A stretch of DNA of 32,277 bases from an uncultured Candidatus Saccharibacteria bacterium (GTDB lineage: Bacteria; Patescibacteriota; Minisyncoccia; CAYVXU01): positions 1 to 32,277 of the forward strand of contig CAYVXU010000009.1 in NCBI GenBank assembly GCA_964454705.1, given 5' to 3'. Of this stretch, positions 2,493 through 32,277 are shown in pieces. Positions within the stretch are counted from its first letter, which is position 1. Every line of letters begins with the position of its first letter. The notes below the pieces were generated by a model. It was not told the DNA's origin. It saw nothing but the letters and a program-made list of their open reading frames with translations, and made no database searches. A program made the position numbers and the translations under genes.

Positions 2493-2604
2493 AATTCAAA
2501 ATGCAAAAATCAAAAGTCAAAATTGTGGTAGCCGCTCCGCGGATATTTTAATACTTTTGCCTTTTGACTTGTACTTTTGCGTTTTGATTTTTGACTTTTG
2601 AGTT
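2493..2604. repeat. AT-rich imperfect palindrome, subfamily 1, copy 1
   Basis: The left end AATTCAAAATGCAAAAATCAAAAGTCAAAAT (2493-2523) is imperfectly inverted at the right end (TTTTGATTTTTGACTTTTGAG, 2582-2602). It is 29/31 identical to the left end of the copy at 5090 and starts 8 nt from the ATG at 2485. Confidence 0.8.
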
Positions 2605-2890: not shown

Positions 2891-3733
2891 TTATTGAATC
2901 TCATATTTAAGGGTCACGCTCACACGGATTTCCTGTGACCCGGGCTCAACAAACGGCGGCGGCGGAACACTCTTTGTATACTCTCCCCCTCCCCTGCCGA
3001 TTCCGTAATCATAGTAGGGAAGCCCGCCAAACGACTCCTCGATAGAGAGCAGTCGCCCCACTCCGAATCCGCCCGCGTTTGCAACTGCCTCTGCTTTTTC
3101 CTTTGCCTTCGCAATTGCCTCCTTCCGGGCTTCATTCTGCAGTCCGCTCGAGTCATCAACGGTAAAGGTAAGCTGCGAAACCGAGTTTGCTCCTTCTTTT
3201 ACCGCTCCGGTGAGCAGTTCTCCTACTTTTACCTTCTCAAAATTCTTCACCTTTACCTGCACGGTTTGCGAGACGGTGTAGCCGACAATATCAGGCGGGG
3301 GGCACCCGCCGCGTCCGGGAGGTGTATCGATGATTGATAGATCAGCCGTGGGTTCGCGTTGCGGATATACGATCGGCGGTGAGGTGCACGGATAGTGCTG
3401 ATATCGCGGCTCCACATTATATGCCTGGGTTTGCAGATCTTCCGCCGGTACCCCACGGTCTTTGACGAATTTGTTTATCCTATTTACCTTTTCGGTATTT
3501 TCGCCAAGAAGCTTGTTGATGTCCTTCCCTCCTTCGGTAATCACGCTAAATGAAAACCGTGCCACATCGGGCACCCAGACCTTTTTTCCCTCTCCCGTGA
3601 CAATGAAACTGCGGAACGATGAGGGTTGAATGGATTTTGAATACGACCGTACGAATGAGTGCACGGAAAGCGCGACTGCAAGGATCCCCACCACGAGCGC
3701 TCCTCCAAGCACATTTTTGAGAGTAGTGTGCAT
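2891..3733 (-). CDS. SIMPL (DUF541) domain secreted/periplasmic protein
   Basis: N-terminal signal anchor followed by the SIMPL layout (FIVTGEGKKVWVPDVARFSFSV ... EIRVSVTLKYEI). ATG 3733 is preferred over the GTG track start 3739. Confidence 0.8.
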   Translation of the reverse strand: MHTTLKNVLGGALVVGILAVALSVHSFVRSYSKSIQPSSFRSFIVTGEGKKVWVPDVARFSFSVITEGGKDINKLLGENTEKVNRINKFVKDRGVPAEDLQTQAYNVEPRYQHYPCTSPPIVYPQREPTADLSIIDTPPGRGGCPPPDIVGYTVSQTVQVKVKNFEKVKVGELLTGAVKEGANSVSQLTFTVDDSSGLQNEARKEAIAKAKEKAEAVANAGGFGVGRLLSIEESFGGLPYYDYGIGRGGGEYTKSVPPPPFVEPGSQEIRVSVTLKYEIQ

Positions 3734-3770
3734 ATACACTTATTTAGTGAATGAGATTATTTCTTTGTAT

Positions 3771-3822: not shown

Positions 3823-3952
3823 AATTTCAAATTTCAAAATCCAAATGTCAAATAAATGTGGAAAACCTCAATGTCCAATGACAAAAATCGAAGCTGCCTC
3901 TTTGGATTTTGGAAATTGGGGTTTTATTTGAAATTTGGATTTTGTCATTTGG
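3823..3952. repeat. AT-rich imperfect palindrome, subfamily 2, long copy
   Basis: About 130 bp folding around 3890-3904. Its ends match the reverse complement of the element at 31290-31378 (36/37 and 26/27 nt). Confidence 0.85.
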
Positions 3953-4025
3953 TTTTTTGAGTGTATGTAATATAGAACTGCCACGTACGTCTCCTACCAT
4001 AGCCAGGATGTATCACCTGTCACCC

Positions 4026-4045
4026 GCGCGATAAAAAGGTCGCGC
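4026..4045 (+). other. GC hairpin 24 nt upstream of the 4069 start codon
   Basis: GCGCGA-TAAAAAGG-TCGCGC followed by CTTATTCCCTTTATT. Function unknown (attenuator-like or operator-like). Confidence 0.35.
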
Positions 4046-4068
4046 CTTATTCCCTTTATTGAATATCT

Positions 4069-4596
4069 ATGCAAAAATTTGCACCCTACCTTGCAAGTGT
4101 TCTTGTGGTGAGTGCGTTTGCTGCTACGGTGGTGTTTGCGCAGACCGCAACTCCTACTCCAAGCCCTTCGCCCACACCTACCGTTTTTCCTTCTCTCGGC
4201 CCTACGCCGACTTCGACCCCTTCACCGTTCCCCACTCCTACTCCGAAACCGAAGAAGGGTGATATTACGGCGGCGAAGCGGACTTGTATCAAAGATGCTA
4301 TTGAAAAGCGGGATACTAAAATTGTGAACGCCTTCGATGCGCGCAATAGCGGGTTGCGCAACGCGCTGCTCAAGCGTAAGGATTTGTTGAAGGCGGCATG
4401 GGATAAGCCCACCCGCAATGAGATCCGCGCCGATCTTGACAAAGCCTGGAAAGAGTACGCCAAGATGAGAAAAGAGCTTCGGAAAAACTTTAGAAAAGAG
4501 CGGCTTGGCGCGTGGCAGGAGTATTTTCGGACCCGCACACGAACGTGCAGAGTGCCCGATACTACTCACAACCACGATGTAGATAATGACTTCTAG
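4069..4596 (+). CDS. Secreted protein with a PT-rich linker and a basic helical domain (hypothetical)
   Basis: Signal peptide MQKFAPYLASVLVVSAFAATVVFAQ, a TPTPSPSPTPT linker, then a Lys/Arg-rich helical region. A strong terminator follows the TAG. Confidence 0.7.
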   Translation: MQKFAPYLASVLVVSAFAATVVFAQTATPTPSPSPTPTVFPSLGPTPTSTPSPFPTPTPKPKKGDITAAKRTCIKDAIEKRDTKIVNAFDARNSGLRNALLKRKDLLKAAWDKPTRNEIRADLDKAWKEYAKMRKELRKNFRKERLGAWQEYFRTRTRTCRVPDTTHNHDVDNDF

Positions 4597-4744: not shown

Positions 4745-5083
4745 TCAGCAGGCCAAAGATATTCTTCCCGCGCGAAAAAACTCTCTCGATTGCATATCCT
4801 TCGCGAATGAATGCGCTTTTTCTTTCATATTTTCTGCCATATGTCTTACCGAATCTGCAGGGTTCACTTCGCCGGGTGTGGTCATAAAGGGCTCCTCCGG
4901 AATGACGACAAGCGAGAGAAGGTACACAATAACCATAAACCCACTCGTCACAAAGAGGAGAATGAGGAATATAAACCGCACGAGCGCGGGATCTACATCA
5001 AAGTATTCTCCGAGACCCCCGGCGACCCCGCCGAGAATCCGGTTGGTACGCGAACGAAATAAGCGTTTTTGCATGTTGGACAT
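4745..5083 (-). CDS. PspC-domain membrane protein, apparently truncated by a -1 frame break (corrected model 4623..5083)
   Basis: RILGGVAGGLGEYFDVDPALVRFIFLIL matches the PspC domain consensus. The ORF stops at 4745, but the -1 frame continues from the A6 run (4775-4780) with two further TM helices to TAG 4623-4625. Confidence 0.8.
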   Translation of the reverse strand: MSNMQKRLFRSRTNRILGGVAGGLGEYFDVDPALVRFIFLILLFVTSGFMVIVYLLSLVVIPEEPFMTTPGEVNPADSVRHMAENMKEKAHSFAKDMQSREFFRAGRISLAC

Positions 5084-5089
5084 TATATT

Positions 5090-5208
5090 AATTCAAAATT
5101 CAAAAATCAAATGTCAAAATGAAAGATTAAAAATTGAAAAAGCAACGCTGCAGTATTTTTTTGGTTCTTTTTACATTTTACATTTTCATTTTGATTTTTG
5201 CATTTGAG
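5090..5208. repeat. AT-rich imperfect palindrome, subfamily 1, copy 2
   Basis: The ends (AATTCAAAATTCAAAAATCAAATGTCAAAAT ... TTTTGATTTTTGCATTTGAG) match the copy at 2493-2604. It fills the whole gap between the stop at 5209-5211 and ATG 5083. Confidence 0.8.
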
Positions 5209-11187: not shown

Positions 11188-11253
11188 CCCGTTAGAGAAA
11201 AGCCGCCCCTAGCGGCTGCCGCCGTGCCTTCGGCGGGGCGGTTCTCTAACGGG
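11188..11253 (+). repeat. 66-nt GC-rich multi-hairpin palindromic element, copy 1
   Basis: Outer 12-bp stem CCCGTTAGAGAA / TTCTCTAACGGG encloses two hairpins (AGCCGC..GCGGCT and CCGCCG-TGCCTT-CGGCGG). It is 63/66 identical to the reverse complement of 22238-22303 and sits exactly between two divergent -35 boxes. Confidence 0.85.
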
Positions 11254-19221: not shown

Positions 19222-19304
19222 GAAATTTTCAATTTACAATTTCTAATTTTCAATTGAAAATTTGGATATTGAGAATTCATTGAAAATTGCAAATTGAGAA
19301 TTGG
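19222..19304. repeat. AT-rich nested palindrome (CAATT-word type)
   Basis: Perfect 14-bp palindrome TTTTCAATTGAAAA (19247-19260). AATTTTCAAT occurs at 19225 and 19245 and inverted at 19280. The direct repeat ATTGAGAATT occurs at 19268 and 19293. Confidence 0.75.
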
Positions 19305-22237: not shown

Positions 22238-22303
22238 CCCGTTAGAGAACCGCCCTGCCGAAGGCACGGCGGCAGCCGCTAGGAGCGGCTTTTCTCTCAC
22301 GGG
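22238..22303 (-). repeat. 66-nt GC-rich multi-hairpin palindromic element, copy 2 (inverted)
   Basis: Its reverse complement is 63/66 identical to 11188-11253. It contains the TGA stop (22297-22299) of the kinase gene and ends 1 nt from the -35 of the glutaredoxin promoter. Confidence 0.85.
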
Positions 22304-30760: not shown

Positions 30761-30789
30761 GAATAATCCAGCTTTGTGCTGGATTATTC
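30761..30789 (-). terminator. Hairpin overlapping the rplS stop codon
   Basis: 12-bp perfect stem GAATAATCCAGC / GCTGGATTATTC, loop TTTGT, followed on the minus strand by an A/U-rich tract. Confidence 0.55.
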
Positions 30790-31269
30790 CTCTTTCTTCT
30801 CTTCTGGCGCCTCTTCTTTCGGTTCTTTCTGCTCGGTTTCTGCTTCTTGCGGTAACGCTTCAGCTGCGGGTTCAGTTTCAGACGTGACTTCTTCTTTGGG
30901 CTCTTCGTAGACGATCGCCTCGAATTGTCTCGCCTTCATGCGGGCCTTCTTGCCGCGAAGACCTCGCAGATAATACAGTTTTGCCCGGCGCACCTTCGCG
31001 CGGCGCATGATCTCAATTTTCTCGATATTCGGAGAGTGTAAGGGAAAAACCCGCTCCACACCCACGTTAAAAGAGATCTTGCGGACCATGATGGTTCCGC
31101 TCAATCCCCTTCCATGCTTATGCGCGATTACCACACCTTCAAAGATCTGGCTCCGAGTTTTATCACCCTCCTTAATCTTCTGATGTACGCGAACCGTATC
31201 CCCCGGTTTGACATCGGGGAGTTTTCGCGTGGCGTGTTTCTCGGTAAATTGTGTGAGCACGTTTGACAT
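30784..31269 (-). CDS. rplS: 50S ribosomal protein L19 with an acidic C-terminal extension
   Basis: [33 protein letters not shown] is the L19 core. The first ATG is 31269; the track start 31311 is a TTG inside the upstream repeat. Confidence 0.95.
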
Positions 31270-31272
31270 GTA

Positions 31273-31290
31273 TACGATAGTGCTATCGTA
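31273..31290. promoter_or_regulatory. 18-bp palindrome 3 nt upstream of the rplS ATG
   Basis: TACGATAG-TG-CTATCGTA (8+8 perfect arms). No SD lies between it and the ATG. Confidence 0.4.
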
Positions 31291-31378
31291 AATCCAAATG
31301 ACCAAATCCAAATTTCAAATTATCGGACATTGAGATTTTGACATTTATTTAACATTTGGATTTTGAAATTTGAAATTC
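31290..31378. repeat. AT-rich imperfect palindrome, subfamily 2, short copy
   Basis: Its reverse complement aligns with 3823-3952 apart from a ~45-nt central deletion. It lies between the RluA-family stop (31386) and the rplS start. Confidence 0.85.
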
Positions 31379-31385
31379 TTGAAAG

Positions 31386-32135
31386 TTAGGCAATGGTAGC
31401 AGGATTTGCCTGATTTCGCAAGTATGCAAGCGCCTTTTGGAAATCATCCGGAAGCGGCGCCTCAAACTCATAGAGCATCCCGGACGGATACTCAAAGGAG
31501 AGTGAGGCTGCATGCAGCATCTGCCGTGTTACTCCCGGAAGATGCGCTTGGCGTTTAAACTTGTACTTCTCATCGCCCACTACCGGGTGACCGATGGATG
31601 CGAGATGCACCCGTATCTGATGCGTGCGCCCGCTTTTAGGAAATACCTCAAGGAGAGTATACTCCGCCTCGCCATCAGACGAGGCTAACGCAAACCGCTC
31701 TTTTACTTTATATTCCGTAACCGCGGTTTTGCGTTTGACCTCTGTATCGGACCGCAGTACTTTCGTTTTTCCCTCTTCCTTTATAAGCGCCGTATCAATA
31801 ACTCCTTTTTCCTGCCGCACCGCACCATACACAAGCGCAAGGTACTTTTTGTGTACCGTCCGCCCCTGAAATGCCGATTTCAGATAGGTAAATGCCTTAC
31901 GCGTCTTCGCAATTACCATTACTCCCGAAGTATCTTTATCAAGCCGGTGTACAATCCCCGGCCGCGTCGTGTCTTCACCTACTTCTTTTATGTGAGGATA
32001 GTTCTCAAGAAGCCAGTCCACAAGCGTTGGCTCATGCGAAGAGGGAGTTGGATGCACCAACAACCCGGATGGCTTGTCTATGATCAGAAAGTTATTACGT
32101 TCATACAGTATTCGAGGATTTTGAGGTGTATGCAT
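31386..32135 (-). CDS. RluA-family pseudouridine synthase
   Basis: HRLDKDTSGVMVIAK catalytic motif and HQIRVHLA. The first ATG is 32135; the track start 32177 is a TTG inside the repeat. Confidence 0.9.
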   Translation of the reverse strand: MHTPQNPRILYERNNFLIIDKPSGLLVHPTPSSHEPTLVDWLLENYPHIKEVGEDTTRPGIVHRLDKDTSGVMVIAKTRKAFTYLKSAFQGRTVHKKYLALVYGAVRQEKGVIDTALIKEEGKTKVLRSDTEVKRKTAVTEYKVKERFALASSDGEAEYTLLEVFPKSGRTHQIRVHLASIGHPVVGDEKYKFKRQAHLPGVTRQMLHAASLSFEYPSGMLYEFEAPLPDDFQKALAYLRNQANPATIA

Positions 32136-32141
32136 GAATCT

Positions 32142-32277
32142 AGAAATTCCAAATCCCAAGCACCAAATTCCAAACAATAATAAAATCCAAATTACCTAAA
32201 TCTCAAACATTTAGACATTTTGGTCATTGGAGATTGAGATTTGCTTGGTATTTGGGATTTGGATTTTGGAATTTCCA
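32142..32277. repeat. AT-rich imperfect palindrome related to subfamily 2 (reaches the window edge)
   Basis: GAAATTCC (32143-32150) pairs with GGAATTTC (32268-32275), and AAATCTCAA pairs with TTGAGATTT near the centre. It shares words with 31290-31378 and starts 7 nt from ATG 32135. Confidence 0.7.

Follow-up and report, generated by a model that had tools for sequence, protein, structure and literature searches.

AT-rich palindromes of a Candidatus Saccharibacteria contig and their relation to a cross-phylum family of hairpin elements with a PF05635 gene-bearing form

The palindromes and their family

The contig CAYVXU010000009.1 of an uncultured Candidatus Saccharibacteria bacterium (assembly GCA_964454705.1), analysed over a stretch of 32,277 nt that is referred to below as the window, contains two related AT-rich palindromes in the spacers between protein-coding genes (Table 1). 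The longer one separates a gene for a SIMPL/DUF541 protein from a divergently oriented open reading frame (ORF) of 175 codons, for which a Pfam search gave no match. The shorter one lies between the co-directional genes, both on the minus strand, of an RluA-type pseudouridine synthase (recorded product of 249 aa, with its ATG at 32135) and ribosomal protein L19. A preliminary description, made from the sequence alone, had taken the two palindromes for copies of a dispersed repeat resembling a miniature inverted-repeat transposable element (MITE). The observation is real and this interpretation is essentially right. The palindromes belong to a dispersed family that occurs in many phyla, and they are probably ORF-less miniatures of a selfish hairpin cassette of the intervening sequence (IVS) type, being MITE-like in form only.

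Global pairwise alignment revealed that the long copy (3823-3956) is homologous to the reverse complement of 31290-31378, the short copy being inverted. At one end the two copies share AATTTCAAATTTCAAAATCCAAATGT[C/T]AAATAAATGT, with identity at 36 of 37 nt, and at the other end ATTTGAAATTTGGATTT[T/G]GTCATTTGG, with identity at 26 of 27 nt; on the left side of both copies the similarity extends on through ...CTCAATGTCC. About 41-45 nt of the centre of the long copy are missing in the short one. The end identities and the central loss of about 45 nt given in the preliminary description were thus reproduced. A degenerate 26-mer fitting all four arms, CAAATKWCMAAATCCAAATKTYAAAT, has exactly 4 sites in the window, against 0.00 expected from 100 shuffles. 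The long copy is predicted to form a single long hairpin on either strand (-40.9 and -38.0 kcal/mol, z -4.1 and -5.6), in which 29-nt arms with 90% complementarity lie inside a stem of about 50 bp, a terminal inverted-repeat stem of the kind that defines an IVS.

In total, the window contains six AT-rich palindromes of like style, starting at 2493, 3823, 5090, 19226, 31290 and 32143. All are made of words about 7 nt long, which read CAAAnnn in the 5' half of the palindrome and nnnTTTG in its 3' half. The one at 32143-32275, a third and more divergent member of the family, has folding energies of -42.2 and -48.4 kcal/mol (z -5.1 and -5.9).

A 26-nt arm pattern matched at least 117 contigs in a 596-Gb genome collection, where no more than 0.8 would be expected by chance even at 25% GC, and it had no matches in 2.9 million viral contigs (IMG/VR); a 17-nt arm pattern was set aside as too noisy in viral contigs. 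Among the matches listed, all contigs belong to metagenome-assembled genomes (MAGs) or single-cell genomes, labelled as many groups of Patescibacteria/candidate phyla radiation (CPR), Thermodesulfobacteriota/Desulfobacteraceae, Syntrophaceae, Omnitrophota, Nitrospirae, Chloroflexi/Anaerolineales, Ignavibacteria, Actinomycetota, Stahlbacteria, Clostridia and Gammaproteobacteria. The local GC content of the matches ranges from 29% to 59%. A complementary GT-rich arm follows within 260 nt downstream in about 75 of the 121 listed matches, and almost none was found in the upstream control. One consensus of about 110 nt, nAAnTTCAAATGTCAAAATCCAAATGTCAAATnAATGTCAAAATCCAAAATnCAAAA - loop - TTTTGnnATTTGnnnTTTGGATTTnATTTGACATTTGAGCTTTGnnATTTGnnATT, is shared by 34 copies and has a recurrent asymmetry, with CAAAATCC in one arm opposite GAGCTTTG in the other. 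Over 90 nt, the short copy of the window has 82% identity with a copy from a deltaproteobacterial MAG of groundwater.

The alignment of the 34 copies was converted into a profile of the hairpin family (profile A1), and 118 sequences, namely 117 loci and the window, were searched with it. It detected 165 distinct elements in 819 kb, with at least two elements in 36 of the 118 sequences. Although derived from copies in other genomes, profile A1 matches the window significantly at 3823-3956, 31290-31377 and 32145-32274, which places these three palindromes in the family. The proposed dispersed palindromic repeat family is therefore supported by both the profile and the cross-phylum matches, and the search for additional members suggested in the preliminary description recovered further copies across phyla as well as in the source metagenome. 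The family is far larger than a 'subfamily 2' of one genome would be: it extends across phyla, its conserved consensus spans about 110 nt, and in the window it also takes in 32145-32274 and, distantly, the palindromes called 'subfamily 1'. At gathering score, Rfam recognised only tRNAs in the window and 35 related loci; the best sub-threshold matches were plant or animal miRNA hairpins with E values of 0.1 or more, judged spurious.

The window sequence is present only in two DNA runs of one groundwater metagenome, and in no RNA run. Contigs of both runs span 3830-4477 and 31288-32172 with zero differences from the window, and the flanks of both copies are unique and have a depth of 12-16x, equal to single-copy depth. 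Summed depth over the arms reaches 76-154x, the arm edges coincide with the ends or branch points of many other contigs, and over the third member (32143-32275) the summed depth is 154x against a baseline of 16x. About eight further contigs of the source metagenome (11-22x), including a third 'subfamily 2' variant with yet another centre, bear arms of this type, which indicates that more family members exist in the sample, several of them at the depth of this genome. The contig terminates 2 nt past the third member, so the assembly broke at the repeat. That end, together with the breaking of Logan contigs at arms, is what might be expected if the two loci were an assembly artefact, such as a collapsed or duplicated repeat or a chimeric join. 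However, independent contigs of two runs reproduce both loci unchanged, the flanks are at single-copy depth, and the copies differ from each other by substitutions and the 45-nt indel, leaving this explanation a negligible probability. An assembly duplication, named in the preliminary description as an observation that would refute a dispersed family, is accordingly ruled out, since it is only the arms that pile up.

Table 1. Palindromic elements, their arms and neighbouring genes in the window
Feature	Position	Strand	Remarks
Long gene-less copy	3823..3956	.	imperfect palindrome of 7-8-nt words (CAAAnnn, then nnnTTTG); between divergent SIMPL gene and 4069-4596 ORF
Long copy, profile A1 match	3823-3956		E 3e-21 on +, 7e-20 on -
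Long copy, 5' arm	3824..3878	+	full-length positions 2-55 (nhmmer to full-length profile)
Long copy, 3' arm	3891..3953	+	full-length positions 392-453 (nhmmer to full-length profile)
Short gene-less copy	31290..31378	.	inverted relative to long copy; occupies rluA-rplS spacer; profile A1 E 6e-15 (31290-31377)
Short copy, one arm	31376-31323	-	full-length positions 2-55
Short copy, other arm	31321-31291	-	full-length positions 425-455 only
Third, more divergent family member	32143..32275	.	CCAAAT-type words; just upstream of rluA start (32135)
Third member, profile A1 match	32145-32274		E 2e-12, both strands
Distant relative ('subfamily 1', CAAAAnn words)	2493..2604	.	inverted repeat; profile A1 E 7e-5, filters off (2494-2604)
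Distant relative ('subfamily 1')	5090..5205	.	profile A1 E 4e-5, filters off (5092-5204)
Palindrome at 19226	19230-19300		marginal profile A1 match only
SIMPL/DUF541 gene	2891..3739	-	left of long copy; Pfam PF04402, E 2e-43
Unannotated 175-aa ORF	4069..4596	+	right of long copy, divergent from SIMPL gene; 'secreted protein' of the preliminary description
RluA-family pseudouridine synthase	31386..32135	-	Pfam PF00849; stop 8 nt from short copy
Ribosomal protein L19 (rplS)	30784..31264	-	Pfam PF01245, E 4e-44; start about 26 nt from short copy

The full-length form and its PF05635 gene

At three loci (L122, L179 and L224) the two arms are 320-470 nt apart and surround an ORF of about 115-125 aa, and the three encoded proteins are mutually 62-69% identical. 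Those of L224 and L122 belong to PF05635, the family named '23S rRNA-intervening sequence protein' (S23p), with Pfam E values of 3e-13 and 9e-17, respectively; the closest solved structure to the cassette protein is PDB 2RLD. A scan with these proteins yielded 80 metagenome loci encoding homologues with 62-77% identity. The arm profile adjoins the PF05635 ORF upstream in 76 of these 80 loci, downstream in 64 and on both sides in 60. From them, 47 distinct complete elements of 431-485 nt were obtained and gave a consensus of 456 positions that starts with AAT and ends with ATT, with the ATG of the PF05635 gene sitting in the last 7-nt word of the 5' arm.

The full-length cassettes follow the upstream ORF at a median distance of 10 nt and precede the next one by 34 nt. 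Among 37 cassettes with two known flanking ORFs, 35 lie between co-directional genes on the strand of their own ORF; in the remaining two the right neighbour is convergent, and none is on the strand opposite to co-directional neighbours. The gene-bearing form thus behaves as a promoterless cassette riding on the transcription of the host operon. L179 encodes, at 4095-4448 (-), a further PF05635 homologue that is distant from the main clade (30% identity) and flanked by CAAAAnn/TTTTGnn arms, the word type of 'subfamily 1' of the window, which suggests from sequence that each arm 'subfamily' may have its own protein clade.

Both copies in the window start exactly at the consensus terminus of the family, and their ends coincide with the two termini of the 456-position element. 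The long copy lacks full-length positions ~56-391, which comprise the PF05635 ORF, and has about 12 nt between its arms. The short copy lacks the ORF and also about 33 nt of the inner 3' arm. As only the two ends of the full-length element have counterparts in the window copies, both are ORF-deleted derivatives, and their membership in the family and origin by ORF loss are considered highly probable. The alignment of copies proposed earlier for distinguishing full-length and deleted forms has therefore led to a full form of about 456 nt with a PF05635 gene. The distinction between a long copy and an internally deleted one holds for the pair, but the long copy is not itself full length.

The spacer between rluA and rplS provides a view of the locus in relatives. 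The two genes are adjacent and overlap by 4-11 nt in all four relatives compared (P0002, P0009, P0019 and P0008), and no family member is present in the 6.7-kb locus of the nearest one. In the window, they are separated by a 120-nt spacer holding the 88-nt element and an 18-bp palindrome. Given the overlap in four relatives, the element-filled spacer represents an insertion and a derived state, and by this comparison of sequences the insertion appears to have uncoupled an ancestrally overlapping gene pair. The nearest RluA homologue on record is 56% identical, and exact-protein look-ups of the window proteins returned no match.

The gene contexts of the gene-less hairpins were taken from a simple call of longest ORFs. 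In these contexts 53 hairpins lie between co-directional genes, 5 between convergent and 2 between divergent ones, so that the divergent spacer occupied by the long copy of the window is unusual for the family. The hairpins fill their spacers: the upstream ORF is a median of 12 nt away and the downstream one 16 nt, and for 25 of 45 hairpins neither neighbour is more than 30 nt distant. No orientation bias was detected among gene-less copies (25:28 by pattern arm and 21:16 by full-length profile), the near-symmetric arms limiting the power of this comparison, and RNA folding did not differ between the sense and antisense strands (22:23, p 0.38).

Arm-only matches were also observed deep inside long ORFs, in 7 of 48 cases (L152 5426-5451, L198, L235, L165, L176, L164 and L139). 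They read in frame as low-complexity peptides, e.g. ...QNPNVKIQMSNKNKNPN... and ...KIQISKSKFQIKSKIQIF.... From the look of their sequences, the host genes presumably encode a methionyl-tRNA synthetase, a GT2 glycosyltransferase, TsaD, a FemAB-like protein, a Mur ligase, a protein of type IX secretion system (T9SS) type and UvrA.

MAGs of Desulfobacteraceae and some others have the same arms around a core that is conserved and non-coding (e.g. L160 860-1200). This arrangement was seen in L158, L160, L207, L219, L146, L206, L228, L131 and L132, where the arms sit within a larger repeated unit of about 400 nt beginning ...TTAATCCCTTAAACCATCCCGCAGTAGCGGG...GTGTTAGATAGTGATTTGTGATGCCCTATGGAATAAAGTT. 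The unit has several copies per genome, behind unrelated genes, and no Rfam match; in some of its copies the loop harbours further small GC-rich hairpins.

Spread of the elements and competing explanations

If the palindromes are miniatures of a selfish IVS-type cassette, as is probable, their spread would occur at the DNA level and independently of transcription, as indicated by the position of the long copy in a divergent, probably untranscribed spacer and by the absence of orientation bias among gene-less copies. Selfish insertions would persist in spacers where they are harmless. A co-transcribed copy, like that in the rluA-rplS spacer, would present a stem of about 30-55 bp, a predicted substrate of RNase III, and its cleavage would cut the polycistronic mRNA between cistrons. 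By analogy with published work on rRNA IVSs, the case for such cutting of transcribed copies is about evenly balanced. The PF05635 protein is the only candidate partner for mobility.

Several results weigh against this explanation. Around the 47 full-length elements the longest word shared by the flanks averaged 4.45 nt, compared with 4.32 +/- 0.13 nt for mismatched flanks, giving no sign of a target-site duplication; the element ends are fuzzy by a few nt and a duplication of 1-2 nt would escape detection, and the flanks are plainly A/T-rich. For PF05635 no recombinase is known. With neither a target-site duplication nor a known recombinase, mobility is deduced from distribution and not from mechanism. 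A tblastn search found no PF05635 homologue in the 32-kb window, and both copies are without an ORF. For L289, a close relative, the PF05635 part has no coverage in the source metagenome at 80% or higher nucleotide identity; a master ORF-bearing copy in this genome is hypothetical. The fold of the short copy is no more stable than those of its shuffled versions (z about -1 to -1.4), and the 'empty-site' relatives for rluA-rplS are only 50-56% identical in RluA. Arms of full-length elements pair with foreign arms as well as with their own (-33.5 kcal/mol in both cases), and RNAalifold detected no consensus structure for the family. In the gene-less set, the values for own and foreign arms were -25.9 and -27.1 kcal/mol. 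The absence of covariation between arms means that the stem is not kept by compensatory change, and this makes a purely RNA-structural role less likely. Conservation concerns the words and their order, and not particular base pairs. As far as sequence conservation can tell, such a pattern would fit recognition by a protein, or homogenisation by slippage or conversion, and would fit a precisely folded RNA less.

The hairpins could instead be regulatory signals selected by the host, such as factor-independent or bidirectional terminators, attenuators or elements of mRNA processing and stability, which each genome would retain for the tuning of operon expression. Most copies lie exactly between a stop codon and the next start, often no more than 30 nt from both, and the long stems of the long copy and of 32143-32275 are real. 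Comparable intercistronic hairpins are known to affect the fate of mRNA, for example REP/BIME sequences in E. coli, sites for RNase III in phage T7 and Correia elements in Neisseria. However, a terminator scan gave no terminator-like sites at either locus, there being no G+C-rich stem or T-tract, and nothing needs terminating at the long copy between divergent genes, so that the earlier view that this copy has no terminator role was borne out. Nor is a regulatory signal indicated by the lack of orientation bias, by the equal folding of the sense and antisense strands or by the missing arm covariation. The sequence identity of about 80% across phyla exceeds the need of a structure-only signal, in the full-length form a gene lies between the same arms, and rluA and rplS overlap without a hairpin in four relatives. 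Host-selected signals are thus an unlikely explanation. Two related suggestions of the preliminary description received no support. A sigma-70 scan detected no promoter inside either window copy, the TTGACA/TTGTCA-containing arms included, with counts at the level of shuffled sequences. The A-tracts thought to be phased for DNA bending recur in the long copy as A/T tracts every 7-8 nt, not every 10-11 nt, with power at 10.5 nt amounting to 0.08 of the maximum, and in-phase bending is therefore not expected; crude whole-element spectra of other copies are noisy.

Origin as classical MITEs, i.e. non-autonomous deletion derivatives of DNA transposons that a transposase from another place in the genome mobilises in trans, would account for the terminal inverted repeats, small size, numerous copies and either orientation, and both window copies derive from a longer element by internal deletion. 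Yet the sole product encoded by that longer element is a four-helix-bundle protein of PF05635, which lacks a transposase domain, and no transposase gene was found between arms in about 1 Mb of loci. Besides, target-site duplications are not detectable, and the supposed terminal repeats are arrays of 7-nt words over the whole arm rather than short defined ends. The label 'MITE-like' is hence apt for the form of the elements and not for their mobility, and true MITEs are a very unlikely source. It is still less probable that the palindromes arose by convergence through independent slippage of 7-nt units in AT-rich spacers, with neither common descent nor mobility. Such a process would agree with the short-word composition of the arms, with register slips that defeat a consensus fold, with equally good pairing of arms from different elements, and with the differing heptamer copy number of Coxiella strains (PMC4990558). 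It is contradicted by the preservation of word order over about 110 nt across phyla together with the asymmetry of CAAAATCC versus GAGCTTTG, by the 36/37 and 26/27 nt shared by the window copies, by a 26-mer expected less than once by chance and absent from viral contigs, by copies in genomes of 50-59% GC, and by termini coinciding with those of the ORF-bearing element.

Within the selfish-cassette explanation, a more specific proposal can be made, although only tentatively and with odds that are not in its favour. The pentamer of the PF05635 (S23p/Avd-like) protein could be the sequence-specific partner of the 7-nt arrays. The full-length elements would then be transposase-free mobile cassettes, rRNA IVSs would be copies that landed in rRNA, and the gene-less hairpins may be non-autonomous satellites moved or maintained in trans. 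This proposal is consistent with the conservation of words without arm covariation and with the different arm words of the distant protein clade.

Related systems and further observations

The closest known counterparts are the ORF-bearing IVSs in 23S rRNA of Coxiella burnetii, Leptospira, Brucella and Xanthomonas (PMC4990558); PF05635 ORFs also occur inside rRNA insertions of CPR bacteria (PMC11270868). The Coxiella IVS, 428 nt long and described as a 'selfish genetic element', has terminal inverted repeats that form a 28-bp stem and the S23p ORF in the loop; just before the ATG it has 2 or 3 tandem heptameric repeats (GACAGAT), depending on the strain, and it is excised by RNase III (PMC4990558). 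The present family shares with these IVSs the long terminal inverted repeats forming a stem, the PF05635 (S23p) ORF of about 115-125 aa in the loop of the full-length cassette (Pfam E 1e-13 to 1e-16), the tandem heptamers in the arm before the ATG, a sporadic and apparently horizontal distribution without a transposase, and the existence of reduced ORF-less forms, found in rRNA in the case of IVSs. It differs in location, since IVSs occupy helix 25 or 45 of 23S rRNA, whereas the window copies and 19 of 19 sampled full-length relatives lie in spacers of protein genes, none of the 19 being inside rRNA. Unlike IVSs, it has many copies per genome, is spread over many phyla with a conserved arm sequence and includes abundant gene-less miniatures. 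The heptamer is CAAATGn here and GACAGAT in Coxiella, the window copies have no ORF, and excision by RNase III, demonstrated for rRNA IVSs, is here only predicted.

Bacterial MITEs, such as Correia/NEMIS of Neisseria, ERIC and RUP, are likewise small, ORF-less palindromic or terminal inverted-repeat sequences that are multicopy, intergenic and present in either orientation, and that arise by internal deletion of a longer element. The family described here differs from them in having no target-site duplication, in the absence of a transposase from its longer relative, and in its occurrence in many phyla at about 80% identity, rather than within one genus. Co-transcribed Correia hairpins are cut by RNase III. 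Rickettsia palindromic elements (RPE) are palindromes of about 100-150 nt that are located both between genes and in frame inside genes, only in Rickettsia; neither a transposase nor an ORF-bearing full-length form is known for them. In a similar way, arm arrays of the present family are translated inside the putative methionyl-tRNA synthetase, TsaD, GT2 enzyme and Mur ligase of other MAGs, but the sequence is unrelated to that of RPE. REP/BIME and REPIN sequences resemble the family as high-copy extragenic palindromes at gene ends, and for REP/REPIN a dedicated small protein, the Y1 (HUH) RAYT transposase, is thought to act on the hairpins. However, REP sequences are G+C-rich, 20-40 nt long, GTAG-bearing and species-specific, as opposed to AT-rich word arrays of 50-60 nt, and the only protein associated with the present elements is a four-helix bundle, an association with RAYT not having been searched for.

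The origin, mobility and purpose of 23S rRNA IVSs and the function of S23p (PF05635) have been questions since the 1990s. Both matters are still called unclear in the Coxiella paper (PMC4990558). No description of the dispersed family was found in the searchable literature, only papers on rRNA IVSs, and the cassette family is described there in its rRNA-borne form alone. It may be that the IVSs of rRNA represent one special case within a far larger population of hairpin cassettes and gene-less miniatures, with which the intercistronic gaps of ordinary operons are filled in many uncultured phyla. The family offers hundreds of natural insertion sites and arm variants, as well as a concrete candidate pair of a protein and a DNA or RNA. 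The elements are also of practical importance, as they break metagenome assemblies (the contig studied here ends in one), separate gene pairs that overlapped ancestrally, such as rluA-rplS, can lie within genes and be translated in frame there, and could pass for terminators, promoters or small RNAs in annotation.

Some other features were noted in the window and in a related locus. The window contains no rRNA genes, its Rfam matches being tRNAs only. The 18-bp near-perfect palindrome ACGATAGCACTATCGT at 31270-31289, between the short copy and the start codon of L19, is part of neither the element consensus nor a gene. On the PspC side of one 'subfamily 1' copy, at 5083-5140 (-), the arm gives TTGATT, 17 nt and TATAAT ending 7 nt before an ATG, which, judged by eye, looks like a promoter for a leaderless mRNA. 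One relative (L322 1-1314) has an FtsH gene upstream of rluA with Intein_splicing and faint LAGLIDADG_3 matches, and a LAGLIDADG-type ORF after rplS. Finally, two 66-nt G+C-rich segments at 11188-11253 and 22238-22303, 11 kb apart and unrelated to the AT-rich family, form an inverted pair with 95% complementarity.

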